Positions 29,701 through 61,327 of a DNA stretch of 64,000 nucleotides are shown here, piece by piece (the first letter of the stretch is position 1; each line of letters opens with the position of its first letter). A program made the translations under genes and the position numbers. Below the pieces are notes generated by a model. It was not told the origin of the DNA, did no database searches, and worked only from the letters and a program-made list of their open reading frames with translations. The DNA comes from Marsupella aquatica. Its lineage: Eukaryota; Plantae; Marchantiophyta. The stretch lies in contig OZ316896.1 in NCBI GenBank assembly GCA_973895155.1, positions 19,394,754 to 19,458,753 of the forward strand, given 5' to 3'.

Positions 29701-29764
29701 AACTTCCTTGCCTCAGCTGCATTTCTTTGAAAATGTGCAATATATGCACAAGCATCAGGCTAGT

Positions 29765-30108
29765 TGTTGAGCATAGACGACATTCGCAACGGCAAGCCCA
29801 TGAACCATCCAACGTACAATAGTCGACACAGAGAAATACGTGGTTCACCTCCACATGAGGCTACGTCCACGGGAACACACAAGAGCTTTACTGCACTCTA
29901 GGCCGACCGGCCATACCAAGCATCCACAGCACAAGCTCTCCCTATCTCTCAACTAGCTCCGTAACAATGAGCCTAAGTTCCACCAGGGTCTGGCATCAGC
30001 CCTGGCTATATGCACAACAGCACTACAGCTAACCTTAGCTAGGTCCTAACCCGAGTTAGCTTAACTGTGGTTAGCACAAGAGTCACAAGACTAGAGCAAT
30101 ATCTAACA
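29765..30108 (-). repeat. 3' LTR of the copia element
   Basis: Direct repeat of 36120-36463, adjacent to the PPT. Confidence 0.97.
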
Positions 30109-30316
30109 AACTCCCCCTTGACTCTTGTCTTGGGGACTGGACTAAATGCTACCATATGGAATCCTCAGCGGGAAGTTCTAGACAATCACCAAACCAGGTC
30201 TCCCCCTAAAAAACCACAAGGGTTAACTAAGGGTTAACTAGAACTAAGCCGTAGCCTAACAGGAATGAGTAATCCATATACAAATAGTCACACATTGCTA
30301 AATAACTCTACTTGCA

Positions 30317-33300
30317 CTACAACTGCAAAACCTGCAAAGTAGCACGGTGTCTTGAGAAACTCTCCAAAGGAATCACTTTGGTAAAGGCATCAGCGGGATT
30401 GAGCTTTCCATCAATCTTGACTAGCTCAAAAGTTTTATCAGACACTGCTTGCTTGATAAAATGGTACCTGATATCAATGTGTTTCACCCTGCTATCCATC
30501 ACCTGGTTAGCAGCCAAGTGAAGAGCACTTTGACTATCACAGTTTAGAGTCATTTTTCCATGCTCTAAACCCATCTCCGCGATCAACTTATCCAACCAAA
30601 TTGCTTCCTTTGTAGCTTCTGCTGCTGCAACATACTCTGCTTCTGTAGTAGACTGAGATATGCACTTCTGCAAGGTAGATTTCCAACTGATACATCCTCC
30701 TCCAAGAGTGTATACAAACCCAGTTGTAGATCTCCTTGTATCCAGACAGCCTCCATAGTCAGAATCTACATAGCCAACTAACGTTCTATTTGATCTGTTA
30801 TCAAATAGTAATCCATAGTCCTGTGTTCCCTTCACATACCTGAGAATCCATTTCACAGCTTCCCAATGTACCTTCCCTGGATTTGACATGAATCTGCTAA
30901 CCTTGCCCATCGCTAGGGCCAAGTCAGGCCTAGTACAAGTCATCAAATACATCAGACTGCCTACTGCCTTCTCATAAGGAATCTTAGCCATCAGACCTTT
31001 CTCCACAGCATCCGTAGGAGAGAAAGCTGATGATAACTTGAAATGTGAAGCTAAAGGAATACTCACTGGCTTACAGTTCTCCATGTTGAATCGTGCAAGT
31101 ACTTTCCTCGCATACTGGCCTTGACTCAAGCACAACTGTCTAGTCTCAGAGTTCCTAAAAATCTCCATCCCTAAGATCCTCTTGGCCTTACCAAGATCCT
31201 TCATCCTGAATTCAGCGCTCAATTTCGCCTTGAGACTATCAACCTCAGATTGATCTTTAGCCACAATTAGCATGTCATCCACATAGATCACCAGAATGAT
31301 GAAACCAAATACATCATTCTTGACTGATTTTGTATACACACAAGGATCATACACCATCCTTGTAAAACCTTGAGCAAGCATGAAATCATCAAACCGCTTG
31401 TTCCACTGTCTGGGAGACTGCTTCAATCCATACAAGGATTTGAGCAATCTGCAAACTAAGTTCTCTTGGCCCTTCTTCATAAAGCCTAGTGGCTGTCTCA
31501 TGAAGATCATCTCTTCCAAGTTGCCATAGAGAAAAGCAGTAACAACATCCATCTGATCCATCACCAGATTAAAAAACACAATAAGCTGACACAAGATCCG
31601 AATTGTGGAATACTTAGCCACCGGTGAAAAGACCTCATTGTAATCGACTCCTTTCTCCTGAGTGAACCCCTTGGCAACAAGCCTTGCCTTGTAGATCTTA
31701 TCTCCACCCTCTGAAGGACTGTCCTTCAACTTGTAAATCCACTTGTTGTCCACCACTTGTTGACCTTTTGGAAGCTCCACCAGCTCCCATGTCTTGTTGT
31801 CACTCAAAGATTGCAACTCCCTCTGCATTGCTCTATTCCACTCATGCTTCTGCTCTGAAGCACAAGCCTCACTATACGAAGAAGGCTCTCCTTCTTCCAA
31901 GATCAAAGCCATATCATCTTCATCAGGTGCAATGTCAATATCATCTAGCTTAGATGAGTCTGCCCATTGATCATACCTGGTAGGAGCTCTAGTAGAACGA
32001 CTGGAAGTTCTTCTAGTAGATGACTCAAGTTGATCTGTTGCTGCTGCTGGTTGAATTTGAGGTACCCCAGCAACAATTTGCTCCTCTTGTTCCATCACAG
32101 GAACCAGCTCCAAGCCCGAAGCTTCTCCATCTCTCCTGTCATGAACTGCATCATGACTAATCTCCCCCTCAACCCGGTCCGGGATGGGAGATTTCCCCTT
32201 GTCAGTATGGGAGTCCTGAGAACTCTCCCCCTCCTTTGATGATCTGGATTCATTAAAGGACACATCTCTACTGACAATTAGCTTACAGGTTACTGGATCC
32301 CATAACCTATAACCCTTCACACCTTTATGATAACCAAGGAAAATGCACTTCTTCGACTTGGAGTCTAGTTTGGATCGAAGCTGGGAAGGTGTAAGCACAT
32401 AAGCATCACATCCAAAAATCCTCAGATGTGAGTAATCTGTTGGACGCCCGTACCTCATTTCAAATGGCGTCTTGAATCCAATAGAACTGGATGGAGAAAA
32501 ATTTACCAAATAAGGTGCAGTGTTGACAGCTTCAGCCCAAAACTCATGTGGTAAGCATGATTGACTCAACATACTCCTCGAGCGGTCCAATAGTGTTCGG
32601 TTGAGTCTCTCAGAAACACCATTCTGCTGAGGAGTATAGCTTGTTGTGAGATGGTGGGTAATCCCCTGCTCCTTACAATACATTCCAAATTCACCGGAAC
32701 TGTATTCACCGCCGTTATCCGATCGAAGATATCTCACCTTATTACCAGTCTGATTTTCAACTTGGGCTTTCCACTCCTTAAAAGTGGCAAAAACATCAGA
32801 TTTATTGTGTAGAAAGTATATCCACACATACCTTGAGTAATCGTCAATGAACGTGACATAGTATAACCGTCCAGAATGTGAGGGAGTAGGGGCGGGACCC
32901 CACACATCACTATGTACATACTCAAGTACCTCCTTGCTGGTGTGAGTTCCAACTCCGAAGGGTTTCCTGTGCTGCTTCCCTAGCACACAGTGCTCACAAA
33001 ATTCCAACTTACAAGATTGCAAATTAGAAAGTAATCCTTTCTTCTGAAGAATAACCAAACCTTTTTCACTCATGTGGCCCAAACAGAAGTGCCACAGTCG
33101 GGCCGTCTCCTCATGAGATAAGGTTACATTGGCTTCATCACAAACTACACTGCCCTCCATAATGTATAGATTGCAATGTCTCTTTCCCTTCAATACAACT
33201 TTAGTACCAGTTGAAACCTGAAGGACACCATTAGCAGAACTCCACTGATGGCCATTTGCCTCTAAAACTCCAAGTGAAATGAGATTTTTCATCATGCTGG

Positions 33301-33535
33301 GAATATGTCTCACATTCCTCAATGTTCTCATAGCACCATCAAACATCTAAAATCTTACAGATCCAAGTCCAACAACTTGACATGGGATTCCATTTCCCAT
33401 CAACAGTGACCCGTTGGAAACCGTGTAAGAACTGAAATAATCTCTTCTAGAGCAAATATGAAAAGTACATGCACTATCTAGAATCCAGTCATCACTACCT
33501 GGATTTGACACTACGTTGAGAGCATAACCTTGACA
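30317..33535 (-). CDS. pol: Copia pol (protease-integrase-RT-RNase H), interrupted by an in-frame TAG within the protease region
   Basis: WILDSACTFHIC protease motif upstream of the TAG at 33347-33349. Integrase WH..LGH..CEHC, VHSDVWG, LRSDNGGEY and QNGVSER. RT YKARLVAKG, MDVVTAFL and YVDDML. RNase H DSDYGG, CDSQSA and KHIDIRYH. Confidence 0.93.
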
Positions 33536-34600
33536 TCACAATATGTCATCATCATCGAGTAAATCTACCTCATGCGAGCTTGATGCTGCGTTAGCAGAGG
33601 CAGTAGGGACCTTTACTCGACAATCCCTTTTCATGTGGCCTGGCTTGCCACAATTCCAATATGCAAGAGGCTTCCTCTCTTGCGATTTTCCTCTGGATTT
33701 AGATCTCCTCCGTGATGTAGATCTAAACCTGTTCTGCCCATTCGTGCGCTGCGTTGCTCTTCCCCTGTTCACATTGAGCGCAGTGCCAGAAGAAGATGTT
33801 GTCTGTGATTGACCCAGCTTCTTCTGAGCATCATCAGACAGTAAAGAGCTTACCACCTCATTATACGAAATGGACTTCAGATCTCTGTACAAGAGCACTT
33901 GTTTCAAGCCCTGATATGACGGCGGTAAGGAGCTTAGCAGAAGCAAGGCCTTATCCTCATCTTCAACTCCTTTTCCTAGGTTTGACAGATCAACCGCTAG
34001 ACTGTCAAACTCATCCAGGTGATCCTGCATCTTGCTCCCTTCCTTGAGCCTGAGGCTCATCAAGAGAGACTTCTTGTACAGTCGGTCTGACGCATCTTCC
34101 CGGTAGTACTTCTCTCTTAGAGCCTTGAATAGTGACGCGCAATCCGCATAATCATCCAGCTGCTTGATGATGTGCGGCTTGAGATATAGCATCACTGCAT
34201 TGACAGCAATCACCTGCTCCTGTCTCCATTGCCTCACTGAAATCTCCTCCTCTCCATCATACTGCTCTCGCGATGAAAGCAGATGAGCTAAGCCCATGGC
34301 CCGTAGAACACCCTTCACTTGCTTCTCCCAGAGCAAGTAATCAGTACGACCATCGTACTTCTCCACCTCAAACTTCACTCCTCCAAATCTAGCCATCTCC
34401 CTCTTCTTCCCTACTACCGACAGCTCTGGTAGTAACACAGCTTCCTCCACTGCACGCCGCACCGGTGATCGTACCGGTGTTATAAGTTCCTCCTCAAATG
34501 GTAGCAGCTCCTCCTCAGATTCTCCGTCTGACCGTCGCGATCCTGAAGCTCCACCGACGCCAATTCTTCCAGTATCCTCCGAGTCACTCATATGAAACAA
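33536..34600 (-). CDS. gag: Copia gag
   Basis: KFEVEKYDGRTDYLLW, LLLLSSLPPSY and zinc knuckle (Y)WNCGKPGHMKRDC with the first Cys mutated. Ends in a TGA that is in frame with pol. Start codon uncertain. Confidence 0.9.
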   Translation of the reverse strand: MFHMSDSEDTGRIGVGGASGSRRSDGESEEELLPFEEELITPVRSPVRRAVEEAVLLPELSVVGKKREMARFGGVKFEVEKYDGRTDYLLWEKQVKGVLRAMGLAHLLSSREQYDGEEEISVRQWRQEQVIAVNAVMLYLKPHIIKQLDDYADCASLFKALREKYYREDASDRLYKKSLLMSLRLKEGSKMQDHLDEFDSLAVDLSNLGKGVEDEDKALLLLSSLPPSYQGLKQVLLYRDLKSISYNEVVSSLLSDDAQKKLGQSQTTSSSGTALNVNRGRATQRTNGQNRFRSTSRRRSKSRGKSQERKPLAYWNCGKPGHMKRDCRVKVPTASANAASSSHEVDLLDDDDIL

Positions 34601-36119
34601 TCATGAAAAAACGTCTTTTTTCAAAACTTCTCATAAAACTCAAAACTCAACACCGCCGCGTAGCCCATGAAGCTAGGAGTCCAATACTGAAATCCAAAAT
34701 CAAAATCAAAATTCGACGAAAAAGTTATTCAAATTTCGGTCGGGGTGGGTAAAACCTTAGGAAACTCCCCCGTTTTGACCACCTCGGAGAATAACCAAAA
34801 TACCCAGTATAACCCGTCGTTGGAATTGCGATGTGATCGGTGCGCCACGTTGCCAACTCCAGTGGCAACGTCCTCACCAAAAAAGAACCAAAAAAGTTAC
34901 CGTGCGGGGACGGAATCTTTGTGTGACGGCCGAAAAATAGCTCTCTGTTTTTCAGGAATATTCCCGCACAGTCCAACAGGGCTCACAGGGGGCCGTTCCC
35001 CCTGTCGGAGCAGTTAAAACGGAGGGTCACAGGGCCCGGGATGAGGCACAACCAATGAGGAGGAGGAGAGAAAAAAAAATTCAGAAAAACACACTCTAAA
35101 GGGGTCTTAAAGCCCCTGGCAAAGGCGCGCGTATTCGCGGTATCGCGCGCGTATTCGCGGCCAGAATCGTGTATAAACAGCAAAAAACGTGAAAAAATGG
35201 GTTTAAAGGGGTCAAAATGCGCGTATTTTCACGTTTTTGGGCCGCATATGGGCGTTTTTGGCCGTATTTGGGCCCAAAAAAGCACGTTTTCACGCTTAAA
35301 GGGGTGTGGGAGGCCGGTGTGCGCGCCGGGGCGTATGGCGAACCTGGTTTGTCGGGTATTGGGGCCGTATTGGGGCAAAAAATGCCCTAAACTAACCTTA
35401 AAAATGTGCCCAAAATGACACAAAGGCCGTGTTACAAACCTCAACCGCCTCCGCTTTGGTTTCCAATGAGAAAAGTGATGACCGCCGACATGAAAATGTT
35501 TCCGAATTGCACCGGCACGTCTGAAGCTCCACCAGAGAAAGAACTTCAGTTGCGTCGCCTTCACTCCGCGTCAAGTGCCAATCCCGGACTCAAAACGACC
35601 GTCTCGCCACGATCTCTCCGTTGAGCCTCAGCACTTCGCGTTTCTTCCTCCGAGTCAAGCGTCACGACAAGTAATCCGGTTCAGGGAAAAACAAGCACCA
35701 TAGCTTGTCAAAAAACCAGAACGCCTCCTTCACTCGTCACGACGCACTCGTTTCGCAAACGTCAGCAAACTAGATACCAAAACGACCAGCACGCTCCAAC
35801 CTTCAACTTGAACTATCACATGCGATGCCCCGCACACCGCATAGCTCACACCGTTGAAGAAATAATCTCTGGTTTCTCCCCCGAAATACCGTCGAACACG
35901 AATAAACCCTGAACGATGCAAACTTCAATTCCTCCGCACCACGGATACCGATCAGCGAGCTCTAACCACCGTTAGAATGCCCTCTCACTAACCTATCCAC
36001 TCAGCCACACACAATCGAGTTTCATGCGACGAAACTCTGAATGTACCATCGACAATGAACGCTGGAAAAACTTGTCACGAAAAAACCTCGTCACCTCCCA
36101 GGCATGCTCTGATACCACT

Positions 36120-36463
36120 TGTTGAGCATAGACGACATTCGCAACGGCAAGCCCATGAACCATCCAACGTACAATAGTCGACACAGAGAGATACGTGGTT
36201 CACCTCCACATGAGGCTACGTCCACGGGAACACACAAGAGCTTTACTGCACTCTAGGTCGACCGGCCATACCAAGCATCCACAGCACAAGCTCTCCCTAT
36301 CTCTCAACTAGCTCTGTAACAATGAGCCTAAGTTCCACCAGGGTCTGGCATCAGCCCTGGCTATATGCACAACAGCACTACAGTTAACCTTAGCTAGGTC
36401 CTAACCCGAGTTAGCTTAACTGTGGTTAGCACAAGAGTCACAAGACTAGAGCAATATCTAACA
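36120..36463 (-). repeat. 5' LTR of the copia element
   Basis: Direct repeat of 29765-30108, adjacent to the PBS. Confidence 0.97.
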
Positions 36464-38610: not shown

Positions 38611-39534
38611 AAAACAACACAAGCCCTAAGGAACGGGTCAAATTAAGGTGGGGTGCAGTGCACCAAAGATCTCAAGAGCGAAATGGTAGAACAAATCCCC
38701 AGGGTACCTAACAACAAAGGCATCCACTGTAACATTCATGTGGCATAATCCAAAAGATTATTCCAATTCTACATTACCAAAATAATCCTGGCATGTTGAT
38801 ATAACTTAATGACATAAAGTTGTGCGTGCCAATGACAATTGAACAGCATAATTATACTATTACGGAGAGTGAGAAAGTGAGCCAAATTGATGAACCTCAG
38901 ATTTTAGGCGGCATTTGGTATTTTGGCTCAAAGGGATTTGTTGGAATTGATCAGTAGAGCACATCTTCCAACAAGGCGTCCTATGCCTTCTCGGGGGTCT
39001 CACTCCGCGAAAATCTCATATCACGTGCGACGAAGTATAGGGTCCGTTAATTGGGTTTCTCGGAAGACTTAAGAAGATTTGTGTAAGAACAATAGGGCCA
39101 ACTTTATATGTTGGACAACTTGTAAGAATAATAGGGATATTAATATTTTTGACTTTGTAGATGGAAGGCATACAAAGAAGTTAGGGGGTCTTTGTGTCGG
39201 ACTATGTAAAGTACACGTGTCACTATGTCATTGGTACACGTGGCACACATAACATTCCCAATATATTTTCCTAATTTTTCTAAGATGTTAACATGGCAAG
39301 AATTTGAGAATGATCTGGTTTTATGGGGACTCACGTTTAGGGTTTGACCGGGATTAAGTTTGAAATTTTTCTGTTTAACGTGTCTCGTTTACCTCAATTG
39401 GCCCTTGTCAGTCCCTCCCGTGTCGTTTCCCTCCACTATCCCTTTGGCCCCACCCGCTCTTTGCCTCAACAGAGTCTCTTTTGTTTGTACCTTGCAGCAA
39501 ATGGCCTAAACGGGGTCTAAACCAGTTGTGCTCC

Positions 39535-40410
39535 TGCTTGGAGTGAAGGTCGGATCGAGCGAGAGTGTGCTCTCGACTGCACTTGGAGTGAAGGTTGGAT
39601 CGAGCGAGAGTGTGCTCTCGACTACACTGTTGCTGGAGTGAAGGATCGACTCCTGTTGTGCTCTCGACTGCACTGCTGCTGCGGCTGGAGTGAAGGATCG
39701 AGCTGCGTTGCTGCTGCGGCTGGAGTGAAGGATCGAGCTGCGGCTGGAGTGAAGGATCGAGCTGCGGCTGGAGTGAAGGATCGAGCTGCGGCTGGAGTGA
39801 AGGATCGAGCTGCGGCTGGAGTGAAGGATCGAGCTGCGTTGCTGCTGCGGCTGGAGTGAAGGATCAAGCAAGATTTCTCGGAGAAGGATCGAGCTGCGTT
39901 GCTGCTGCGGCTGGAGTGAAAGATCAAGCAAGAGTTCTCGGCGAAGGATCGAGCGAAGGAGTGAAGGGGAGAGCGAGAGTGAAGGGGAGAGCGAGAGTTC
40001 TCGGCGAAGGATCGAGCGAAGGATCGAGTGAAGCGCTGCTACTTGGAGTGAAGGGGAGAGCGAGAGTGTTGCGCTCTCGGCTGTGCTGTTGCCGTTGCTG
40101 CTTGAAGTGAAGGATTGACCAAGAGTTCCTGGCTGCGCTGCTGTTTAGAGTGAAGGGGAGAGCGAGACATCTCAGCTGCGCTGCTGCTTAGAGTGAAGGG
40201 GAGAGCGAGACTTCTCAGTTGCGTGCGCTGATTAGAGTGAAGGAGAGAGCGAGACTTCTCAGTTGCGTGTGCTGATTAGAGTGAAGGGGAGAGCGACACT
40301 TTGCAGCTGCGCTGCTGCTTGAAGTGAACCCGGGAGTGAAGGGGAGAGCGAGACTTTGTAGCTGCGCTGCTGCTTGAAGTGAACCCGGGAGTGAAGGATC
40401 GAGCAAGAGT
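39535..40410. repeat. GC-rich tandem/motif array with core GAGTGAAGG (24-bp unit GGCTGGAGTGAAGGATCGAGCTGC and variants) inside the P-like element
   Basis: About 5 consecutive 24-bp units at ~39718-39837, plus many variant units (GAGTGAAGGGGAGAGCGAG) extending to ~40400. Confidence 0.92.
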
Positions 40411-40584
40411 GTTGCGCTCCGGGAGGTGGGTGTCGAGAGTGTTGCATTGCTGCTTTCTAAAACGGGAGCTGCTAGCTTGCTGAAACGGGAGGTGGCTACT
40501 GCAGGGAGTGTTGCGATATCTCAAACCGGAGTGCCAGGATTGGAGCTGCATTGCTGCGTTGCTCAATCGGGAGGTAGGCGCTGC

Positions 40585-40989
40585 CTACTTTGACGATCGT
40601 ACTTGCTTGCTTGCTACTATTTGACGCCCAAATCTATCACGCATGGCACACCTAGAGTCGATCTGGTAGCGGTCATAGACGAGGAAGCACCTGATCTGCC
40701 CGTTTAGCTTTTCAACTATAAAATTCCTGTTCTGAGCTCCGTGAATGGCGATAAGCTCTTTGAGTATTTTGTCCTCCAGAGCTCGCCATGCCCTCGCAGA
40801 TAAGGTTTGGAGCCACTGCTGAGATCCAGCTCCAACTTCCCAGCCGAATACTAGCTCAGTATTGTCGTCATTTGTCTCGACGTTGTCCATACTCATCTCT
40901 CCTTCTGTGTCCGCATCGACGACTTGACGCACATGTTTTTTGGATGCATCGTTAGAGTAACCGCGAGTACAGGTCTCCAATGATTGCAC
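40585..40989 (-). CDS. Hypothetical antisense ORF inside the P-like element (unknown function; start uncertain)
   Basis: 134-codon open frame with protein-like composition, overlapping a second 62-aa frame (40952-41140). No recognised motif. Confidence 0.25.
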   Translation of the reverse strand: MQSLETCTRGYSNDASKKHVRQVVDADTEGEMSMDNVETNDDNTELVFGWEVGAGSQQWLQTLSARAWRALEDKILKELIAIHGAQNRNFIVEKLNGQIRCFLVYDRYQIDSRCAMRDRFGRQIVASKQVRSSK

Positions 40990-41644
40990 TTGCCATGATT
41001 GACCACCTTACATGATCTCCATCCATGGGCTGGACCCCAGGAAAAAAATCATGTAACTTGACTTCTGTCGTCCCCCACACACCCGCACAAATCTGGTTCT
41101 CTATTACATGCCTTGGTGTCCCGTTGGCTGGTTCCTGCAATTTTCTTTAAGTCATCTAGAAGAGAAGACTTCTTTAAGTGTTTACTCAGCCAGGGGGGAC
41201 CACAGCCTCCAGCCATACTGGGTGGCGGGCCTGGTCAAGACGTGGATGACGCTCGTGCTTGATTTTAAATTCTCTTTTGTTTCTCAAGCTTCTGGGCAAG
41301 GGCATTACCATTCTGGATTCTGAACTTGATCCTATTCAGGTTAGCTATTCAGGTCTGTTGAGCGATTGGGTTATTATTTTATTGCTGTAGTAACATGCAT
41401 GGCCAATTGGTTGTCTTCATGTAATGGGAAGTTTTTGAAACTTAGAAATTGAATGGTGGTTTCAATTTTGTTCACAGGTTGCAAAAGGAATTGTAGAGGT
41501 TGTCATCAGCGCTTGCAGCAGTGAGCACCAACACTTGCGGTGAAGCAGTTTGCTAGAACACATAGTGTACCTAGTGAATTGTAAGTTGCCTGTCATTGCA
41601 CGTCTAATCGTCTGGCCATTCACCGAGTATAAAAAAATAGTGCC

Positions 41645-42043
41645 ATGGCTATATTGGGCATTACATTAGAAGCGAATTATGAGAAGCTCCTTCTGCAGCA
41701 TCCAGATGAATGCTGCTGGTGTGAACCTTGTGTCAAGTGCAGGGTTGGTGATGGGAATTTTGAATGGTTCCATTGCTTCTGCTTGAAAATGCGTGGAAGG
41801 CTTGTTACTAGGACATACATGGGAAAGCATGGCAAAGTTGTCACACGTCGTTGGAAGTGCTCTTGTATAAGGCCAACCATTTGGCCTCAAAATGAGTGTC
41901 TTTTACGCAAGATTGTCATCCCGGACACGCTTGACATTGTAGTCCCTGATAGTATTCCACATTCAACTGAGCTTGATATTGTAGCCCCAGATAGTATATC
42001 AGATCAAGCTAAGGTTACAACCCATGGATGCTTGACATTGTAG
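41645..42043 (+). CDS. Small cargo ORF with a putative single PHD-like (ING-type) zinc finger, 132 aa
   Basis: CCWC-EP-CVKC...EWFHCFC...WKCSC follows a Cys4-His-Cys3 layout, and EWFH..C/W.C recalls ING PHD fingers. Good start context GCCATGG. C-terminal LDIV(V/A)PDSI repeats. Confidence 0.5.
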   Translation: MAILGITLEANYEKLLLQHPDECCWCEPCVKCRVGDGNFEWFHCFCLKMRGRLVTRTYMGKHGKVVTRRWKCSCIRPTIWPQNECLLRKIVIPDTLDIVVPDSIPHSTELDIVAPDSISDQAKVTTHGCLTL

Positions 42044-42359
42044 TCCTTGATAGTACATGGATGCGTTGTTCATATATGACTAGGCCTTTGTTTGCAAGGC
42101 TGCAATTGTACCATCCATGATATATGAGAATATTTTTCATTCCCATTATGTGGCAAAGTTTTGCAAGCTGGCATTGTATTTATGTATGTCTTGGTTGGTG
42201 GGTGTTCAGGTTGCACTGTGTAGTTGACTTCATCTGGGAGGGAGGTTTGCAGATCATTGGAGCAGGTGCTATGATTAACCTTATCTTTGTCTATGGATTG
42301 CTCACTATCATCATGTCCCCCTCATATGTGATGTGCTTTGTGATGATTGCAGTTGAACC

Positions 42360-43034
42360 ATGCCGACAAGGACTTCAAACATAAAGAAAGCAACACAGTC
42401 CTCTGACAGAGGAGCCTCTTTGGAAGAGGTATTGCGTATTCCGTTGTTCTCTGAGCAAGAGATTCTACAAACTAGCCCTCATGTTTGTGCAATTTGTGAG
42501 CATGGTGGGAAGTTGGTAATTTGTGATGGGCCATGTCACAGGCAATTTCATTATGTGGTTGGAGATGAAGCCCCTAATGACTCTTGCCCCTGTGTAGTCC
42601 TTCCCCTCCATCATGGAGGGAAGCCATGGTTTTGCCCAAATTGTAACCAGGACCAGGCCATGTGTTATGGGTGCCGCACTGTGGGACCGTCACCTACAAT
42701 TGTGCGAAAATGCTCTGATCGTTTTTGTGTACGATTTTATTGCTTTGGGTGTTTGGTAGCTGATGCAAAGTCCTGCCCACTGCATACATGTGTGACATGT
42801 TATCAGAGTCTTGAGGGTCAGATGGTCAAGAACATGGTACAATGTCTACGATGTCCAAATGCCTGGCATACAGATTGTCTCCAGATGATCAAAAGCAAAG
42901 GGTTCGCTCATGATAGGGACATCTGGGACCATGAAGCACATGGACAACAGCGACAGATGTTTTATTGCCCCCGTCATCCTATTGATCCACACCTCAAGAC
43001 TCCAATCAGGGACCACATTTCATGGCTCCAATGA
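42360..43034 (+). CDS. Stand-alone EDM2/NSD-type composite PHD finger protein, 224 aa (transposon cargo)
   Basis: VCAICEHGGKLVICDGPCHRQFH..WFCPNC..CYGC..CSDRFCVRFYCFGC..CPLHTCVTC..CLRCPNAWHTDCL..FYCPRHPIDPHLKTPIRDHI parallels the Arabidopsis EDM2 PHD region as I recall it (VCAICDNGG..CEGSC..FH..CPNC..CPLHKC..CRRCP..H..C..YC..H.ID..L.TP.RDH). Splice acceptor TTGCAG at 42347-42352 just before the ATG, with an in-frame TGA upstream. Confidence 0.85.
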   Translation: MPTRTSNIKKATQSSDRGASLEEVLRIPLFSEQEILQTSPHVCAICEHGGKLVICDGPCHRQFHYVVGDEAPNDSCPCVVLPLHHGGKPWFCPNCNQDQAMCYGCRTVGPSPTIVRKCSDRFCVRFYCFGCLVADAKSCPLHTCVTCYQSLEGQMVKNMVQCLRCPNAWHTDCLQMIKSKGFAHDRDIWDHEAHGQQRQMFYCPRHPIDPHLKTPIRDHISWLQ

Positions 43035-43529
43035 TCTGAATAATGAACAAACCTATTACTTAGGTTTCAACGTCTTAGTGGGGTATGAGCAAGGCACATA
43101 CTTAAGGTGCATCATGGGTGGTAGTACCCAATTTTATTAGTGTTGACATTTTGTCATAATTAAGGTCACTAATAGTGCTGCATTTTGATGAGCAGAAGCA
43201 CTAAACTTCGGGAATTGTTAGAAAAGCAGGCGAAAAGGATATTTTGTCCAAAGATATTTTATCCAACTTTAGCGGTATATCATGATTTTCACTGAATACA
43301 TTTGCATGTATGATGGATTGCATTATAAAGTGTTTTGGCCTATTAGCACTTCTATTGTTAAATGTATGCTGACATTATGTACATTACATGAGAATGTGTA
43401 TGTTGTCATTGCATCTCTTGAAGATCCTAATGTGTTTCCCTTGTGTGTATTTCAAATGTATTTGTGCAGGTCTTTCTGTTATCAACTCCAAAAGCAATGG
43501 TGCTATGCATGTTCTAGATTTGTATTGCA

Positions 43530-46500
43530 ATGGCAGCCCCTAAACCCAACTCTGTTAAATTAATACGCAAAGTTGGGGATGACAAGGCTGATTTACCAAT
43601 TTGTGTTTTGTCATTCAAAGAAGGACACACCCTACATGATTTTAGGGCTCGTATTGCCTCTACTCTAGACTTTGACTTTGATTTTTGGGATGAGAGACTT
43701 CCTGGTCGAGTGAAACTTGTACATGAGAAATTAATTGATCTGTCTGAGCTGGATGGAAGAGTTATTGTTGTACAACAAGAACTTGGAGATGGTGGGAGGA
43801 TCCCACCAGTACCCTGTCATCCTTGCACTCCTGCATCATTGGGTCCAAATACTGGGACACCACAACTGGGGCCAACGGCACTAGCACCCTCCCCTGTAAG
43901 GGCTTCTTTTGAGTCACAATTGATGGGAGATGTCCCATCAAAGCTATGGAAAGATGAGTGGATGAGGTTAGAGAAATGGGTACATAAGAAGGGTTATGGT
44001 GATCACAATTGGAGAATTCGTACCTGGGATGAGGGGACAGATGTTCGAGGGCATCTGGAGTGTCTTGAATGTAGGGAAACTTATGGCAATGCAGACAACT
44101 CTCAGAACCCTAAATCCATCTCCAATTGCTTTAGTAATTTTAAGACCAAACACTTGGTCTTCAATAAGCACAAGGATAACTATTGTCGGAGAAGGGGCAT
44201 TCCTTCTACTTTGGTTCAGGTAGCAGACATCTCTGAGAAGCCAGAATATGATCATGCAGACGCCATCAAAGTAGGTGTTGAGATAGTTCAACGATTGAAT
44301 GCTGAGCTTGGGGATGATGGCAAACTATTCTCTATTGTTCCTGATCCCAGTACTCCTGAGTATGTAAACAGGTCTTTCCTGTTTAAGGTTCGATGTACTG
44401 TCTGTGGAATGCTTCACACTGACTTGTGCCCCAAGAAGCTTACCTTGGAGCCCAATTTGAGGACACACTTAGTGAGTCGAGATCACTTGGATGCATTGGA
44501 GACTAGGCATGACACAAAAATGCTTGCCTTGAGGTCTGGGAAGAGGGGCAGGCCAAAGAGGACTGATTCTAGGGACCTACATCCTGGTCAGAGCGGGATT
44601 TTGAAGTTCTTTAAAGATGATGGGTCCCGGACAGGCAGCAGTTCAGGTTCAGGTTCAGGTGTGTGTGAATCTGTTGATCTTGGTCTGAGTTTGCTTTGCT
44701 GGGGATTATGGGTAGAGAGAGGTGTGCCTCGACTGTTATGGAAGGGTATATCTTATGATATTTCTGGCATTTTAGATGATCAGTCTGGGGGAATTACATG
44801 GCATTGTGAGCCAAGTTGTTGCTTGGATGTTTTCCATCCAAGTAGAGAGAGTGTTGTGAGTATAGCAGGCTGTTTTAGACACAAGGATTGCTTGAGGTTA
44901 TCACAGAATGGAGGAGGATTTGAAAATCTAACTTGTAGTGAATGTGATTCTATAACACTAGAAGATGATTTTCGTGGACGGGTGCACAGGGAAGCGGAAG
45001 CAGTAGTCCACAGAGGGAGCCGAACCACTGCTGGTGGTATACGTTTGGATTATTTGACCAACACAGAGTTAAGAGATCAAGTGCACAACCTGAACTCTGT
45101 GCGACGAAAAGAGCGTTGGTTGTTAGCTTTGCAGGCTCAGAAAGTATGTGCCTTGAGCACCAGGAAACGAAAACTAGAGGAGTTGTTAGGAGTTGCAGTA
45201 GACAGGAAGGATTTGAGATTGTTTCTTAGGAGTATTTTGAATGGACACAGGAATGGTGCATTTGGTGGTAAGGAGGGTTTGTGGGATTTCTTGAAGGATG
45301 TAGCTCGCAATTTAGGCAGGAAGCCAAAAGGTAATCGTTACAGTAATAGGACTCGAGCTATTGCTCAGGCTATGTTCCAATTTGGGGGCCGTCAAGTTGC
45401 TCATTGTTTTGCACGAAACTTGACAGCCCCTAGCCTTGTGACCCTAAAACGTGATAGAGCAAAACTCACACCTTTTCGAACCGGGTTACGGAAGGAAACC
45501 TTTCAGGAGATTGCTAGAGTGTTGTCTGCTGCAAAGCACTCATTGGGCATTGAGGGGGATGTGCCTGTTATCTTTGCTGAGGATGAAACAAGGATCAAAG
45601 AACGCCCTAGGTAATTGGAACTGGACATTTTTCCAATTGTTTTTTTAATGACTTTACAAGTAGCACTTGGCTGGAATTGCTGTGATATTGAAAAATTGCA
45701 TGTCTGTGTTTCAGGTGGGAGGCAAAGTATGATACTCTCATTGGTTTCTGTGGACCTTCAGAGCAGCATGTATGCTCCTATGGTTTGGAAATTCTAGTTG
45801 GTGAAGGTGATGAGGGGTATGATAAAATTGTAAGTACATTTGAACAATGCCCCAAGTGCATGTATGCCCGAGTTGTGATTGTGAATCCTCTGCATGAGTC
45901 CTTACCTAAATTGGCTGTGTGTGCACTTCCAACTTGTAATAAGTTCACAGCTTCTTGGGTACGAGAGCATTGGGTCCAGTTAAAGGCTTTTTGGGATGAA
46001 TATTGTAGAGCTATGGTAGGCCCTTTGCTTGGACATGCTAGTGATGGTGATGCACGTCGCCGAAAGCTGATGCTGGAAGATTACAGAGGGCAGAATGGAT
46101 CATACCCAAGGTACGGAGTTGGGTGGGAAGGGTGGACATACTCTGTTTCAATTCTACCAAATGGAGATTTGTATGGCTTTGGTGACCAAGACCAACCTCA
46201 TAATGGGAAAAAGATGATAAACCCCTTAGACAGAGTGTCTTCTTTACTGGTGCTAGGAGATCAACATGCATCTTTATCTTATGTAGCTAATGTCTACAAT
46301 CATTATCCAATTCATGAACATGGCATGGCTTGGGATGATGTGAATAGGACTGACCGGCAGAATTGGGCAGGTCCACAACGAATAGCAGCAAGAAGAGTGC
46401 AGCAATGTCTGAAAGATATGTATGAGAGGAGAGATGTACAACATGAACGAAGTTTAGGAACTCAGTTGTACTTGGAGATTTGTGCAGATTACTTAGATAT

Positions 46501-48106
46501 TTTCTTTTCTCCAGTTCATGATTTGAGGTCCCGTATTGTGTTAGCATCCAAGGTTTCATTCTTTCTACGTTTGTGGAGATTGTGGTTGAGGTTTGGTGAC
46601 CATTCAGTGGGTGGGAACTTTGCAGCACACACTGAGAAAGACATGATGTCTATTCAGGCTTTTCATGATGTTAACATGTCATGTCATTTCATTGTGCTGT
46701 TAATTTGTGCCTTTCGAGATAAGTTCCCACATCTAGGTGTTCCCTTCCACTTGCTAGGTTCAGATTGTTGTGAGATTTTCTTCAGCAAGGTAGGAGGCAT
46801 GAGTGGCCATGAGCGGAATTATGATTTTGGCTCTCTATTGGATAGTGCTGTTGGACTGAACCGGCTTGCTGCCCTAGAATATGGACCAGAAGGCTTGAAG
46901 ATAGGTCGTTCACATAAGAAACAAGATCATGTATGGGGGAAGATTCATCCTATAGGGGAAGGGGAGGAAGCACCAAATCTACTTGACTATTCTCTCATTG
47001 AGACTAATGAATTAGTGGTTGCAGCCCTTAAAGAAGGTTTTGTTGCTGCTAAGGATCTTATGCATCAATTGCAGATGTCTCCACGAAGTTCCTTACCAGC
47101 AGCTAGAAAGAGATGGTGGACATGTCCTTGGGTTGTGGAAAGTGAGACCTGGCCACTAGAGGTGGTTCTGAAGGAAGCAATTGTTTGCAATGATTCTGAG
47201 GAGCAAGTAGAGCACCAACCACCAGACATAGGTCCTCGCCCAACTGGAGATTTTCATGAATTGGAAGATCCTGAGGATGATCTGAATAGAATAGATGCAT
47301 GGTTAACAGAACCAGATCCCATTGTTGTTCCTGAGATGCATTCAGATGATGTACACAGAGATGATATACAGTTTGATGTAGACCCCTCAGATGAGCTTGA
47401 GACATTAGGTCATGAAGTTCGGCATGTGTTTGGATCAATTGTCCATGCTGTAACTAATGTACAGAATCGTACCAAGGTAGTGCCTACTGTTACTTATGAA
47501 GGCAAGGTGATTTACAAATCCACTCTGGTAAGCCAGTTGGTAGGAAATCCGCATTTGTCAAAAGATAGGCTGACAAGGGTGAAACAAGTGCTATACTATA
47601 GTACTGGCAAGAGAAAAGTGCAAGAAGTCAATCCTAACTCATGTTTTGTTGATGTTGGCACTGATTGTGCAATTGCATTTGAGTCTGATGATAGTCCTGC
47701 TCCAAGTACTAGATCTGGAAAAAGAAAGGGAGGAAAGAATAAGGTTGTGGTGGAGGCAATCTCAGCAGGTAAGAAATATTTTTGGTTGGGTCGGATTGTC
47801 CAAATGAGACAGAAGTATGGCAGTAGGTGGGGCAATTGTCGGTCACCAATTGATTTGATGGATAGGCCAACTCCACTTGCAGGGCAATCAGGTAACATTT
47901 GTGAACTGTTGTTAAATTGGTATAGTCCTATTGGTAAGAGCAAAAGTGAATTCAGATATGATACCACTGATTTGAAATGGATGGATATTGAAATGGTCAT
48001 TGCTAGTGTTAGTTTAACCATGAAAGAAGGGGTTATGGATCGTATCTATGTGTTGGATCCAATAGATAGACGTGCTTTGGATCAGTATCTTCAAACAATG
48101 GTATGA
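43530..48106 (+). CDS. P-element-like DDE transposase, 2 exons (43530-45610, 45715-48106), 1490 aa
   Basis: A 104-bp GT..AG intron (45611-45714) joins ORFs 43530 and 45785 in frame (..ERPR/WEAKYDTLIGFCG..). Candidate catalytic motifs FAEDET, HASDGD, DQPHNGKK (P-type DxxH) and GSDCCEIFFSKVGG (cf. P/THAP9 QDxLExxFxxxR). Two C2H2-like fingers and an AT-hook (KRGRPKR) lie N-terminally. Confidence 0.85.
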
Positions 48107-48232
48107 ATATCATGTTACTGTTTAGTTTTTGAGAGTCTGTATATATGTTTTATTTTGTTGTTTAGTTTTTGAGAGTCTGTATATATGTTTTATTTTGTTA
48201 ATATTAGTGGGTGTAGTGGGATAGGATAGGGG

Positions 48233-48292
48233 GTGACGGATTGGCAACTTGAGATCCTTTCTCAATTAGGGGTTCAATTCCCCTCCGTCACA
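48233..48292 (+). ncRNA. D-armless tRNA-like structure (59 nt plus discriminator) downstream of the transposase
   Basis: Acceptor stem GTGACGG/CCGTCAC (7/7 pairs), 9-nt linker, stem TTGAG/CTCAA with a 7-nt loop, and T-arm AGGGG-TTCAATT-CCCCT. No evidence of expression. Confidence 0.5.
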
Positions 48293-50477
48293 TGTTACAT
48301 CTCTCAACATAAGTTTTAAATGGAGTATGGATGGAGCATGGGATTGGTGATCAATGGGTGGAATGGATTATTTATGTTGTGACCTTAAAGGCCATCCCAC
48401 TTATGCACGTAAGGTTTATATTGGGATGACCTTTTAGGTACACAATATAAATGATGCATTGAAATGATCAAAGTTTAAGGTCGACAAAGGTGCAAGAACT
48501 GTTGCAGGGCGTGCCATGTCTGACATACGACTTCACAAGGTACTGACATAGACTTATCTTTTCTTTCTAGGCATTTTATATTGATATGTGACACTTTACT
48601 TCACAAATTATAGGGGCAATACAATTTGGATTTTAGACTCTTAGAAGAAAGAAAGAGGGAGGAAAAAAAATTTTCAACTTAATAAGTATGGGGGTCTAGG
48701 CATGAAAACGTCGCAGGTGATGGGGGGGTCCTCCATATAGTGAGACCCCCGAGTATGCCTTGTAAGCTCCTGGAGTCCCGTCCATTATCAGCACATAAAC
48801 TTGACTTGACAGTGAGTCCCTCTTCTATTCAAACAAAGATCCATCAATACTGCTGTAGCCAGAGTCCCTCACACAGTCCACTCCATTACCAGGGCATCAC
48901 TTTGAATAGCATGCTTCTATTCAAACAAACATCAATGAAGAATGATTTGTTTGAAAATTACTTTTCAAAATTAAAATCCCTTCTAATGGACTCAAATATA
49001 AATCTTTGAACCCGTCTTTGAAAGCCAGTGTCTGTAGAGCGTCAATTAAAATAAAAAAAGCTAATGTAATGTTCATTGTTACTACATAAACAATATCAAT
49101 CCAAATCAGCCTAAAACAAATAGCTCAAGTTTGCACTATTAATGTCTGAATCTCCTTCATATTTTGTGACTACCAGGAATTGCCCTCCCTTCCACCAATA
49201 GGCTATGCTTCTACAACTCTTGCTGTGCTTCAATGGACTTCCCACAAACCTTTCCAGCAATCCCATGTCTACAACCCCTATAAGGAACCTTTTGGACCAG
49301 GGGTCTTGTAGCTGAGCACATATATTTTTGTGTACCCATATAACTATCTTGAACAGGTATACTTAGGAAGCATGAGCCAGGCATTACAAAATTTTAGTGT
49401 GACTGGATGAATTGAACACACACAATGAGGGTGGGCACATTTGCATGATATTAAATTTCCTTGACAGTGTGTATGGCAGAACCTGGTTGCTTCAATTGGT
49501 GAACTTCCTAAATTGCATAGTTATTCTTTGTCATGTCACTACCAAGGACCGACCAGGGTGACATGGGACTCCATGGTAAGCCCAACTGTGTGGTCCGTAG
49601 ATGACCTCACAAGAACATGGTTCTACTCCAAGGGACCCTGGGACTCTGGGAGTGAATCGGAATCATTTGGTCCAATGTGAGAGAATCTAACTTTGGTCCA
49701 GAGGAAAGAAAGTTAGAGGTCCACTAACTATGGGAGGGAATCTGACTCATCTGGTCCATAGGGGAAGAAAGTTAGAGGTCCACTAACTATATTTCTCTTG
49801 TCATATGAGAGAAGATTCGTCTTAATTTCATGAGGACAAGTGTGAAAAGATTCTTTCAGTTTATGAGGACAAGTATTTTACGTGGACAAGAATCTACTTG
49901 TCAAGCTTATGTCCTATTCTCACTGTCCGTTCTGCTGTGAAATATCTCATGGGGACCTTCTCAATTCTCAAAGTCCAGGCAAAAGAAAAAGTCACTTTTT
50001 CGAAATGTCCAGCAACGGCTTGACAAAAGAGAGTGCCTTCGAAGAAGGACCGCTCCAAGTGTCCAAGAGAGCGAATCGGTCTAAGGGACTGATGAGATGT
50101 TGGTAGGAATTTTAGCTTCAGAATAATGTCGGTTTGGGTTGTTCAAATTAAGTGCTGGTCCGGAAGTCTGGCGTCACATGATTTCGGCTTGACCAGGACT
50201 GCAGCCAGGTCCTGCCTATGAAGATTCCCTATTGTTCCTACATTTGACCTGGGATCTATCAATCGCTGTAAGAGCGAGGATAAAAGTACCAACCCATCTC
50301 CAAGTCCGATCAAACAGCCACTCCATTTCCAGAACCGAGCTAAGCTGAAAGATCAGTGAAACTCTCGATTCTGAATCTCCTTCGGCTTATCGGTTCGGAA
50401 TTCCAGACAATTATCATCTTCCATCCAAGTTCTGCGTCAGTGTCTTCAATTCTTGATAGAGTTCAGTTCTTCCTACC

Positions 50478-51644
50478 ATGGCGGTCTATCAGCACCAGAG
50501 AGCCGAAGGGCCAGCCACCGTACTCGCCATTGGCAAGGCTGTTCCGCCAACTGCGTATCCTCAGAGTGAGTATGCGGATTTCTTCTTCGACATCACGAAT
50601 TGCAATGAGAAGACTGCGCTCAAGTCGAAGTTCGCCCGTATCTGCAAAAACTCTGGAATCAACCAGAGGTACTTCCATTGCACCGAGGAGGTGCTGAAGG
50701 CCAATCCAGCGATGTGTACGTACAAGGATGCTTCCCTCGATGTTCGCCAGGACATTGCCATCAAGGAGGTACCCAGGCTAGCAGCAAAGGCCGCAGAGCA
50801 GGCTCTCGAAGAATGGGGCCAACCCAGAGAGAACATTACGCATGTAGTTTTTGCTACCACCAGTGGTGTCAACATGCCTGGAGCGGATCTCACTCTTACC
50901 AGACTCCTCGGGTTGAACCCGAATGTCAAGCGCACCATGCTGTATCAGCAAGGGTGTTTTGGAGGAGCCACAGTTCTGCGTGTAGCTAAAGATTTGGCTG
51001 AGAACAACAAAGGTGCTCGAGTTCTGACCGTAGTCAGCGAACTCACGTGTGTGACATTCAGAGCGCCTAATGAGGAGCACCTGGACAACTTGGTCGGGTC
51101 GGCAATCTTTGGCGATGGAGCTTCAGTGCTGGTCATCGGCTCTGACCCGCTCAAGGTGGAGAAGCCTCTCTACGAAGTCCACTGGTCAGGAGAAACCATC
51201 CTTCCTGAGAGCGATGGTGCCATTGAGGGCCGACTGACACAAGCTGGTCTGATGTTTCATTTGCTGAAGGACGTTCCCGGTATCATTTCAAGGAATACAT
51301 TACCCATATTCAATGCTGCTCAATCTCAAATGACCGGGTCTCCCGGCTGGAATGATATCTTCTGGGTTGTGCACCCGGGAGGTCGTGCCATCCTTGATGA
51401 ACTGGAGAAGGCCTTGAGTTTGAAGCCTGAGAAGCTGAAAGCTACCAGAGATGTGCTCTATGACTACGGCAACATGTCTGGCGCTAGTGTTCTGTTTGTG
51501 CTCGACCAAATGAGAAATCTATCGGTTCAAAAGAACAGTACGACTACAGGTGAAGGGGCTGAGTGGGGAATTGTTGTGGCTTTCGGACCAGGCTTGACCG
51601 TGGAGGTATCAGTGTTAAGAAGTATCGGCTCACCTTCATTGTGA
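50478..51644 (+). CDS. Type III polyketide synthase, CHS/STCS-like (PKS2), 388 aa, intronless
   Basis: Same Cys-His-Asn triad and motifs as PKS1. Protein is well over 90% identical to PKS1 by eye, with many synonymous differences. Confidence 0.96.
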
Positions 51645-54246: not shown

Positions 54247-56439
54247 TTAAGCCTTTCGCCTTGGAGCAGTAGGAGCTCCTTTCCATCCGTCTAAGCACTG
54301 GAGGAGGGGACCAGCCAATTGACCTTCGGTCATGGCATCGTAAACTAGCTCAATATCTTCTCCTGGACACCTTGTCTCTGTACCTACTAGCAGCTTCGTG
54401 CCCAGCGATCTAACGAAATTGTACAGAGGAAAGCTTCGGCAGTCACTGATTCTATTGGGTACACTGGCAACACCACTGTCAAATTGACGTCGAATTTCTG
54501 GAACCGTTGCCTCAAGCTGACTTTTCACCTCCTCCTCGAACACCGAGATCCTTTTGAAAATGTCGGAGGTCTCATTTTCCTTTCGGAGACCGTGGTTAAC
54601 CAGAACTTGCCTCAGTTTCTGCATTAACGGGTAGGAGGCGCTAGTGGCATCGTCTATGTATGAAAATGGAGGCTGGTCATCCACCACTTTCAGAAGATCT
54701 CTCTCGTAAAAGCGAGACGTTAGAAGCGCACCATCGGCGCTGGAAAAGAGAGTCTTCTTGGCGGCCTGGGCCACGACATGCTTCACGCTCGCTTGCATGT
54801 TCTCTTCCAAATGCCTCAAATCGACCGCTTGGCACATTGCTACCAGAAATGTGGAAGACATCAGCTTCAAGATCTCAATCGCCTCTGCCGTCTTCCGAGC
54901 CGAAATCAGCCCAAGGGAGTTGACGTCCTGGTTGTGCTGCTCCGCACTCTGCACGTGTGTGGTCACCGGATTCGCAAGATACAGCAGCTCAGAACAGTAG
55001 GAAGCCATGGCTATTTCCGCTCCCTTGAAGCCGTAATCCAGGCTCGGATTCGGGCCTCCAGTCAGATTGGAAGGCAATCCGCTGTTGTAAAAGTCGTTCA
55101 CGAGTTCAGACATCTGGGCAAAAATCAGCTTTCCCAGAGCTGAAATTGCGAGACGCATGTTATCCATAGACACTCCGATTGGAGTTCCTTGAAAGTTCCC
55201 TCCATGCAGGGCCAGATCTCTGGAAACATCAATGAGCGGGTTGTCGTTCACGGAGTTAATCTCACGCTCGATGGCATGGGTTGCCGCGCGGATGACCTCA
55301 ATTTGAGGACCCAACCATTGCGGTGACGTTCTCAAGGCATACCGATCCTGCTTGGGCTTCTTCAAAGGATCTGTCTCGTGCAGTTTCGCAGCTGCCTTCA
55401 TGTAGGAGCTGCCTTCGAGCACGTATTCCATGATGGCTGCTGCCTCGATCTGCCCAGGGTGATGCTTGAGCTTGTGAGTCAAGTGATCGGTGAACTCTGG
55501 TTTGCCTTGCATCACCTCACAAAACAATGCGGATGATACCTCTGCAAACAATGCCAAGACGTTGGCGTCGTAGCAGACAGTGGAGGCCAGTCCAGAACCT
55601 ACTGCGGTACCATTCACCATAGCTAGTCCTTCTTTAGGCTTCAGCTCAAAGGGCTTCAGAAGTCCGCACATTTTCATGGCTTCATGGGAAGTCACGACCT
55701 TCCCATCTTCAGTGACCGCTCTAGAGTTGGACCTGCCGGTAAGAATTCCAGCGATGTAGGAAAGAGGGACCAGGTCCCCTGATGCGGTGATTGTGCCTCT
55801 GAGGGGCAGCTTGGGAGTTATTTGCTTGTTCAGAAGCTTCTGCAGAGTCTGAAGAACTTCCCAGCGAATTCCCGAGTAACCCTGGAGCAAAGTGTTGGTC
55901 CTCACCAGCATTGCAGCTCGAGTGGTGGCCACGTCCAGCACGTTGGCTGGGTCCTTACCAAGCACTCCTGCATTGAGGAAGCGAATGAGTTCCTTCTGGA
56001 GCTCCTCGCCCTGGTTAGTTCGTCGGTGAGAAGTGGCCCCAAAGCCCGTTGTGACGCCGTAGGTGTCAGTTCCCTTCATCGAGTGGGAGAGCACCCAATT
56101 CGAGCTCTCATCCACTCTCTCCTTGGCAGCTGCAGCGTCGAGTACCACTGACACGGACGGTCGTCTCGCCACAGCTGTAACCTGAGCCACACTGAGGGTC
56201 ACTCCCTGAATTACAACCTCCTTCGTCTCCTCAAATTCTTCCACCATGTGCTTCACTTCCTCCCAGTGGCTCCGCTGCATTGCCTGGGATGCTCGTCCCC
56301 AGTATAGGGGGTCGGCATCTTGATTCTCAAATTGCATCGCGTTTCCTTTAGAAGAAGGTCTGGGACTCAGACAGAGCTGAGCCGGCCAGCCAGTGAGGCT
56401 AGTGGCGCAAGGCTGCTGGGTTGCTACTTCCATCGCCAT
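54247..56439 (-). CDS. PAL: Phenylalanine ammonia-lyase (PAL2), 730 aa, intronless
   Basis: ASG (MIO) motif and all PAL motifs are present. Almost identical to PAL1 after residue ~45. First ATG at 56439. Confidence 0.97.
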
Positions 56440-56745
56440 GGCCACAGAATTACAGCTAAAGTCTCAAATTGAATTTCAAGAGCTTAGCTCAAATTCGGCA
56501 ACACTCGTGAATACGTTGTATGGTCTATCTAGCTCGGTAACTGAGCTGCAGAATTTTGCTTGGAAATAAATCTGTTCTCTTGGAGAATGCCGTTTCGTCC
56601 CAATGAATGGAACACTGAGGATGGATTTCAAACGGCGACGAGATGACTACAGACGATCGAAAAGGGACAATTGGGAAACAAAGAATTTCCCCTGAACTGC
56701 TGAGACAATCCGTGTCTAGGCTTGAGTGAAATAGGGGAGAAGCCC

Positions 56746-61326: not shown

Positions 61327-61327
61327 A

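Follow-up and report, generated by a model that had tools for sequence, protein, structure and literature searches.

The 64,000-nucleotide (nt) stretch of the Marsupella aquatica genome analyzed here (contig OZ316896.1, positions 19,394,754 to 19,458,753; hereafter, the window) contains, at 38990-48753, a transposon that the modeled fold of a close transposase relative places in the P superfamily in the broad sense. An EDM2-type cassette of PHD fingers is encoded inside it by a gene of its own, the cargo. We are highly confident of this identification of the element and its cargo. The termini, the transposase gene, and the cargo gene are located as follows (window coordinates).

38982..38989, no strand: left target-site duplication (TSD), 8 bp, TATGCCTT, same letters as 48754-48761
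38990-48753, coding strand +: whole transposon, ends set by the terminal inverted repeats (TIRs) and TSD
38990..39004, +: left TIR, 15 bp, pairing with the right TIR at 15/15 bases
39020..39032, +: left copy of the subterminal inverted 13-mer, differing from the right copy at one base
42360..43034, +: cargo gene, 224-amino-acid (aa) stand-alone EDM2-type PHD cassette, assigned by Pfam, profile, alignment, and tree
43530..45610, +: transposase exon 1, with putative zinc fingers, a Cys-rich segment, a helical region, and D685
45611..45714, +: transposase intron, GT-AG, 104 nt, junction contiguous in relatives
45715..48106, +: transposase exon 2, with D804, D853-x-x-H856, D1044, and E1047; ribonuclease H (RNase H) domain with insertion domain; acidic linker
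47627..48103, +: C-terminal beta-barrel, BAH/chromo-barrel-like by fold comparison
48709..48721, -: right copy of the subterminal inverted 13-mer, differing from the left copy at one base
48739..48753, -: right TIR, 15 bp, pairing with the left TIR at 15/15 bases
48754..48761, no strand: right TSD, 8 bp, TATGCCTT, same letters as the left TSD

The TIRs and the 8-bp TSD were read at this one locus. Each transposon strand ends in a G, as is reported for Drosophila P (PMC7776569). None of 20 shuffled windows contained a 15-bp inverted pair with an 8-bp direct flank, and the nine further such pairs in the real window all fall within an inverted PAL duplicate. The subterminal 13-mers, 30 and 32 bases from the element ends, are a likely candidate site for the transposase; 12/200 shuffles produced a 13-mer match with 1 mismatch at some place in the two 385-nt ends, and taken alone the motif is modest evidence. 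Self-BLAST revealed no empty paralogous insertion site within the window.

The spliced transposase has 1490 aa and no internal stop. Its intronless relatives P0012, P0013, and P0083 (1523 aa in one frame for the last) are continuous across the junction. The termini, the subterminal motifs, and the uninterrupted spliced 1490-aa frame had been described in an earlier note on this DNA, and all of them held. By eye, exon 1 contains two putative C2H2-like zinc fingers (one Pfam zf-met match, E value of 0.11), and it also supplies the first catalytic Asp, D685. No THAP domain was matched by Pfam in exon 1 or in 14 relatives; THAP is reported to be restricted to animals (PMC7776569). The N terminus (43530-43790, +) may form a beta-grasp module: relative P0064 gave a weak PB1 match (E value of 0.0027), and Pfam returned no PB1/beta-grasp match for the window's own 43530-43790.

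Since the catalytic core spans the intron, we folded the relative P0013 in its place (50% identical over the core and a member of our 43-row alignment; mean predicted local distance difference test [pLDDT] score of 76.9). With VIA-align, this model matched the Drosophila P transposase (6p5a) with a Z score of 25.7 (root mean square deviation [rmsd] of 4.3, 418 aligned residues), the runners-up being RAG at 8.7 and Hermes at 7.7. Foldseek likewise placed the Drosophila P transposase first (E value of 1.1e-10), followed by RAG1 (2.3e-3). We rejected a hAT, MULE, or Transib-RAG placement, as the Hermes, ISCth4, and RAG-Transib core folds all scored Z 7.7-8.7 versus 25.7 for P; the comparison covers the listed folds, among which Kolobok, Zisupton/KDZ, and Merlin have no solved representative. 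The catalytic residues are well conserved, with D804 in 42 of 43 rows, D853 and H856 in 41/41 ungapped rows, and D1044 and E1047 in 31/31 ungapped rows. A DDE triad with a D(2)H motif is reported to mark P transposases (PMC3698922), and in Drosophila P, D528 and E531 are reported to be spaced 3 residues apart, with D528 contacting GTP (PMC7776569); the spacing from D1044, kept in 31/31 rows, to E1047 is the same. Judged by this modeled fold, the element is a P superfamily member in the broad sense, as the earlier note had proposed, and it is outside the animal THAP-bearing group (P, 1360, Galileo, THAP9).

An ESM Atlas search left the transposase unclassified, and PF21787 was matched in 2 of 31 transposase relatives (E values of 8.8e-8 and 0.012). 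The closest named relatives are Riccia sorocarpa transposases with a core identity of 58-59%, and they group beside the window's protein with a Shimodaira-Hasegawa (SH)-like support of 99. More distant relatives (P0040, P0048, P0064, and P0065) are 30-45% identical over parts of the core, and one comes from the sea spider Nymphon. These records show that the lineage extends beyond plants, with members from liverworts and one fern in addition to the arthropod record.

We then analyzed the cargo open reading frame (ORF). Pfam matched it to PHD families only (NSD-like), with PHDvar_NSD at an E value of 5.8e-8. It has six stand-alone relatives of 213-304 aa that are 44-82% identical, including an intact one at 82%. 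A profile of these relatives, run against 1.84 billion representatives, recovered more short relatives, followed by EDM2 proteins that aligned along the entire cassette; among the 17 of 150 listed hits whose names were looked up were the Arabidopsis EDM2 cluster, Selaginella EDM2, and proteins from Marchantia, Riccia, and Calypogeia. Compared with four host EDM2 proteins, the cargo is 31-36% identical and retains 23 of the 25 invariant Cys/His. It consists of 2.5 atypical PHD fingers plus the EDM2 C-terminal tail motif and stops at that tail, without the RFD, acidic, or ELP domains of full-length EDM2. The cargo is predicted from its sequence to bind histone H3 tails.

In a quick, unrooted tree search of 56 of the 138 full-cassette rows, which had no NSD outgroup, eleven stand-alone proteins (187-304 aa) fell on one side of a branch and 45 host rows on the other (SH-like approximate likelihood ratio test, 100). 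For none of the eleven does the name come from an annotated plant proteome. A metagenome scan with the cargo gave 139 matches and four loci, on contigs of 1.5-4 kb. The two stand-alone loci whose DNA was read, L001 and L002, are intronless, with a stop in L001 and a frameshift in L002, as expected of mobile copies. Of nine pattern matches in viral contigs, none was confirmed. The CpG observed/expected ratio is 0.33 for the PHD ORF and 0.33 and 0.24 for the transposase exons, against 0.71 for PAL and 0.67 for the synthase described below; such depletion, like that of the transposase, suggests a long residence of the cargo in the element.

Part of the element was present in seven public runs from 5 studies, with at least half of its words in four of them. 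Depth was read in four runs (X1, X2, X3, and X5; X1 is possibly the source sample) as summed contig depth, which is not a copy number. In X1, it was 10-13 in the flanks, 468-755 in the transposase bins, and 550 and 698 in the PHD ORF bins; in X5, it was 115-246 for the transposase and 111-128 for the PHD ORF, and the PHD bins also stood at transposase level in X2, X3, and X5. In all four runs, depth climbed at both element ends, the coding part being tens of times above the flanks. This result shows a repeated family with tens of copies, whose PHD ORF and transposase reach equal depth; the family that the earlier note had inferred is multicopy, and other copies contain the main PHD ORF. We rejected a host-gene origin of the transposase on account of the TIR/TSD pair and the depth. 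The array described below was almost without coverage in X5, which we treated as a hole and did not count.

Most mapped contigs were 90-100% alike to the element. At neither junction did a contig of the four runs reach 31 letters on each side; 27-30 were present. One contig joint (39246-48518) suggests a rare internal-deletion derivative of ∼0.5 kb resembling a miniature inverted-repeat transposable element, and another (39097-43805) suggests a cargo-less derivative at low depth. Among the 40 listed of 535 differences to the element, those in the transposase were synonymous in 12 of 17 cases (P of 0.0009 versus an expectation of 0.31), those in the PHD ORF in 2 of 2, and those in a 132-aa ORF upstream of the cargo in 2 of 4, the other 2 being nonsynonymous. 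Taken together, we consider it quite probable that the cargo is maintained by selection. The sequence data favor an old, selected, and mobile cargo, whose linkage to the transposase is seen in near-identical copies alone.

The non-coding and minor features inside the element are the following.

39537..40397, +: array of tandem repeats with 20 copies of GAGTGAAG, all in the same orientation, CpG observed/expected ratio of 0.94
40702..40791, -: candidate remnant of a Myb repeat, within an open frame of 140 codons
41645..42043, +: 132-aa ORF, putative ING-PHD-like remnant, weak YNG1 PHD match
48233..48291, +: tRNA-like hairpin set, 127 nt past the transposase stop, D arm absent

The array is composed of tandem units of 12-87 bp and holds 20 same-strand copies of GAGTGAAG at 39541-40396, versus 7 on both strands of the other 63 kb; the motif array of the earlier note thus stands. 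Of the two PHD ORFs reported there, only that at 42360-43034 (PHDvar_NSD, E value of 5.8e-8) was confirmed. The 132-aa ORF had no Pfam family, no homolog at an E value of ≤1 among 5 candidates, and no Atlas match, and its sole PDB match was the ING-family PHD of YNG1 (E value of 0.9), the Cys before "FEWFH" being absent. With no family or homolog and one ligand gone, we did not accept it as a demonstrated second PHD reader; it is at best an ING-like remnant. The Myb-like stretch matched Pfam Myb_DNA-binding with an E value of 0.017 and 15.7 bits, below the cutoff of 24.4, and its second Trp is replaced; if intact in other copies, this frame could bind the array. The tRNA-like fold of the note survives as a hairpin set (a 7-bp stem, a T-arm-like hairpin, a third hairpin, and a B-box-like loop; z of -2.3). 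Its T-arm and 7-bp stem geometry recurred in 2/300 shuffles, for a pattern picked after viewing. We rejected a tRNA gene or a tRNA-derived short interspersed nuclear element (SINE), as there is no D arm, ARAGORN found 0 genes, and the best Rfam match (mascRNA/menRNA, E value of 0.52) was below the cutoff. Contig joints at 48236-48361 indicate that the tRNA-like stretch is skipped or replaced in some copies; one possibility is that it indicates a site of 3' processing, another that it is left over from a SINE.

The last 160 residues of the transposase were modeled well (pLDDT of about 90) and form a barrel whose best match had a Z score of 6.9 (rmsd of 2.5, 81 aligned residues), below the tool's mark of 8. 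BAH domains account for 14 of the top 18 matches, among them DNMT1 BAH1 (Z of 6.9), EBS (6.8), ORC1b BAH-PHD, ASI1, and AIPP3, and chromo barrels tie with them. Foldseek found no match to the barrel at an E value of ≤0.001, and Pfam, the PDB profile search, and ESM Atlas gave none. Because the Z score is under 8 and Foldseek had no match at that threshold, the barrel is a lead only, which we regard with moderate confidence as BAH/chromo-like and as a possible chromatin reader. A complex prediction of the cargo with this C-terminal domain, run without alignments, gave no answer on their interaction (score of 0.00).

PAL and type III polyketide synthase genes neighbor the element, together with a Copia element; this setting and the Riccia transposases agree with a liverwort host. 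The clustered genes form intronless pairs of PAL (98% alike) and stilbenecarboxylate-synthase-like (84% alike) genes, located as follows.

8367-9530, -: clustered PAL/synthase-like gene
24517-26736, +: clustered PAL/synthase-like gene
50478-51644, +: clustered PAL/synthase-like gene
54247-56463, -: clustered PAL/synthase-like gene

The synthase at 50478 matched stilbenecarboxylate synthase 1, an entry that we take to be from Marchantia, with 736 bits versus 565 bits for chalcone synthases. PAL fragments lie near 58400 and at 60560-61340. The set is possibly a liverwort gene cluster for bibenzyls/lunularic acid. The Copia long terminal repeat (LTR) retrotransposon (29764-36463, -) is young, with 345-bp LTRs that are 98.8% alike and gag and pol in separate frames, and to the eye a fragment at 18129-18833 (+) looks like the C terminus of a protein from a non-LTR retroelement. 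The window's host proteins had no exact-sequence match in the protein cluster collection.

We propose, with a probability of roughly 0.45, that the cargo helps the element to stay expressed within silenced chromatin, by counter-silencing or by licensing read-through. EDM2 is reported to bind chromatin with dimethylated lysine 9 of histone H3 (H3K9me2) and to suppress early polyadenylation there (PMC7529245, PMC10241880). In our proposal, a PHD-only copy of EDM2 would be an adaptor or a competitor on the element's own chromatin, favoring full-length transposase mRNA. The cargo and the transposase would probably be spliced from one upstream leader, as the proximal and the distal product, respectively; AG acceptors lie 7 nt upstream of the cargo ATG and 60 nt upstream of the transposase ATG, which fits splicing from a shared leader. 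The transposase would cut at the 15-bp TIRs and insert with an 8-bp stagger, with GTP as a probable cofactor; the subterminal motif and the 5' array are both probable binding sites of its N-terminal zinc fingers. Since the cargo lacks a recognizable DNA-binding domain, the array binder is more likely the transposase; transposases are reported to be able to activate their own copies (bioRxiv 10.64898/2026.08.24.746577). The BAH-like barrel of the transposase would also be a likelier sensor of insertion sites than the cargo.

Several points weigh against this proposal or the identifications beneath it. Host EDM2 is reported to repress the DNA transposon Mu1 yet to promote COPIA4 (PMC3632883); it acts both ways, and therefore the direction of the cargo effect is not fixed. 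The cargo has other sequence where EDM2 has an acidic stretch before the first finger, and its histone specificity may therefore differ. The depletion of CpG in the coding part is evidence of long-standing methylation of the family. Two PHD ORF differences are too few for a ratio of nonsynonymous to synonymous rates, and the cargo tree is of the limited kind given above. No transposase was found on the four metagenome loci, where the downstream sequence is only 670 bases (L001) and 75 bases (L002). Riccia carries many annotated transposase copies, in contrast with the absence of any Riccia stand-alone PHD protein among the 6 relatives or the 17/150 named hits. As for the P assignment, the relative's model matches Drosophila P, whereas Pfam gave no transposase-family match for either exon and the PDB profile search with the 43-row alignment gave none; P cannot be reached from sequence searches by themselves, and the fold is that of a 50%-identical relative and not of the window's spliced protein.

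Among other explanations, the best placed, although improbable, is that the cargo is a targeting factor, which alone or with the barrel would tether the transpososome to H3-marked nucleosomes and steer insertions. The capture of readers by transposons has been tied to insertion choice (reported in bioRxiv 10.1101/2021.11.30.470311), and 14 of the 18 highest-ranked fold matches of the barrel are to BAH domains, which points the same way. However, the cargo is a separate, unfused ORF; the barrel scored below 8 (Z of 6.9) and level with chromo barrels; and the related transposase records, which come from liverworts, one fern, and one arthropod, are not known to be accompanied by the cargo. This copy lies between a PAL gene and a stilbenecarboxylate-synthase-like gene, near Copia, a position that does not tell its chromatin state.

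Passive carriage is slightly less probable still. Host fragments (Myb-, ING-, and EDM2-like) would have been picked up, and the PHD ORF would simply be the most recent or most intact of them; its source may have been a small family of stand-alone PHD genes in the host. Two weak and apparently decayed host-like fragments do adjoin the cargo, none of the loci read placed a stand-alone relative next to a transposase, and the joint 39097-43805 points to cargo-less derivatives, at low depth. The copies are also young (most contigs 90-100% alike), and an intact cargo frame therefore needs little selection. Yet 23 of 25 ligand-type residues are kept at only 31-36% identity to host EDM2, a relative at 82% identity is intact, the CpG depletion of the cargo equals that of the transposase, none of the 11 stand-alone proteins is named from an annotated plant proteome, and both loci read are broken. 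In the least probable alternative, the cargo would be a self-limiting regulator that caps transposition by bringing early polyadenylation or host silencing to family copies. This role would agree with the reported requirement of host EDM2 for Mu1 repression and H3K9me2 there (PMC3632883), with the upstream position of the cargo ORF, where a short transcript would end, and with the repressor isoform reported for Drosophila P (PMC3698922), but the family is deep and near-identical in 4/4 runs, which fits recent amplification.

We thus prefer a cargo that sustains expression of the element in silenced chromatin. In a bolder form, which we think unlikely, this P lineage would have a mobile mimic of the heterochromatin read-through machinery, made of the free EDM2-type cassette and the BAH-like barrel. 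Full-length transposase would then be transcribed from H3K9me2 chromatin and the element would home into it, with the mark kept; by analogy, the host counterpart would be the BAH of ASI1 with the PHD of EDM2.

The P superfamily occurs in algae and protists. A table in a 2022 review gives six land-plant TIR superfamilies, P not being listed (PMC9033089). In the openly searchable literature, excluding Repbase and supplements, we found neither a bryophyte P element nor a transposon-borne EDM2 cassette; reader fusions and TET/JBP cargo are already known in transposons. If true, our findings would add P to the land-plant cut-and-paste superfamilies. The element appears young and intact, is probably active, and resides in a tractable plant group, and its THAP-free transposase is invisible to Pfam. 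The cargo would offer a test case for transposons taking host heterochromatin readers as separate genes so as to evade or exploit silencing, by a route unlike VANC, and a PHD-only EDM2 would be a natural tool to dissect what the cassette reads.

We finally compared the element with known systems. With Drosophila P/THAP9, it shares the RNase H core with a helical insertion domain (Z of 25.7), DDE and D(2)H, an Asp three residues before the catalytic Glu, an 8-bp TSD, the terminal G, internal inverted motifs, and a transposase gene with an intron. Unlike them, its enzyme has 1490 aa (versus 822 aa reported for D. buzzatii [PMC3698922]) at about 15% identity, no THAP match, a zinc-finger-like N-terminal region, and a BAH-like C-terminal barrel, and the element has TIRs of 15 bp rather than 31, a separate cargo gene, and a land-plant host. 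With EDM2 and bryophyte EDM2-like proteins, the cargo shares the whole 2.5-finger cassette and tail motif (31-36% identity), but it is the cassette alone, without the RFD, the acidic stretch, or the methyltransferase-like ELP domain, and it is a mobile, single-coding-exon gene in a separate clade.

The TE-PHD/chromo fusions also represent transposable elements (TEs) recruiting histone readers, but those readers are fused to TE Pfam domains (bioRxiv 10.1101/2021.11.30.470311), whereas here the PHD protein is encoded by a separate gene; a fusion screen would likely miss the element because its PHD is unfused and its transposase has no Pfam match. Fungal TET/JBP transposons likewise carry a chromatin-related host-type gene as separate cargo in TIR elements, but that cargo is an enzyme, and the hosts given in the part of the source cited are KDZ, hAT, IS3EU, PHIS, EnSpm, and Plavaka, P not among them (PMC12730594). 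The analogy with VANDAL/VANC drawn in the earlier note holds for the accessory ORF in a DNA transposon and for the dense, same-strand, tandem-built motifs in 5' non-coding DNA, which have the geometry reported for VANC targets (PMC5735166). It fails for the cargo, which is PHD-only, has no recognizable DNA-binding domain, and is unrelated to VANC by the searches run: VANC is reported to bind its DNA motif directly (PMC5735166) and was shown to demethylate, whereas the present element is P and not Mutator, and its cargo is a predicted histone reader.

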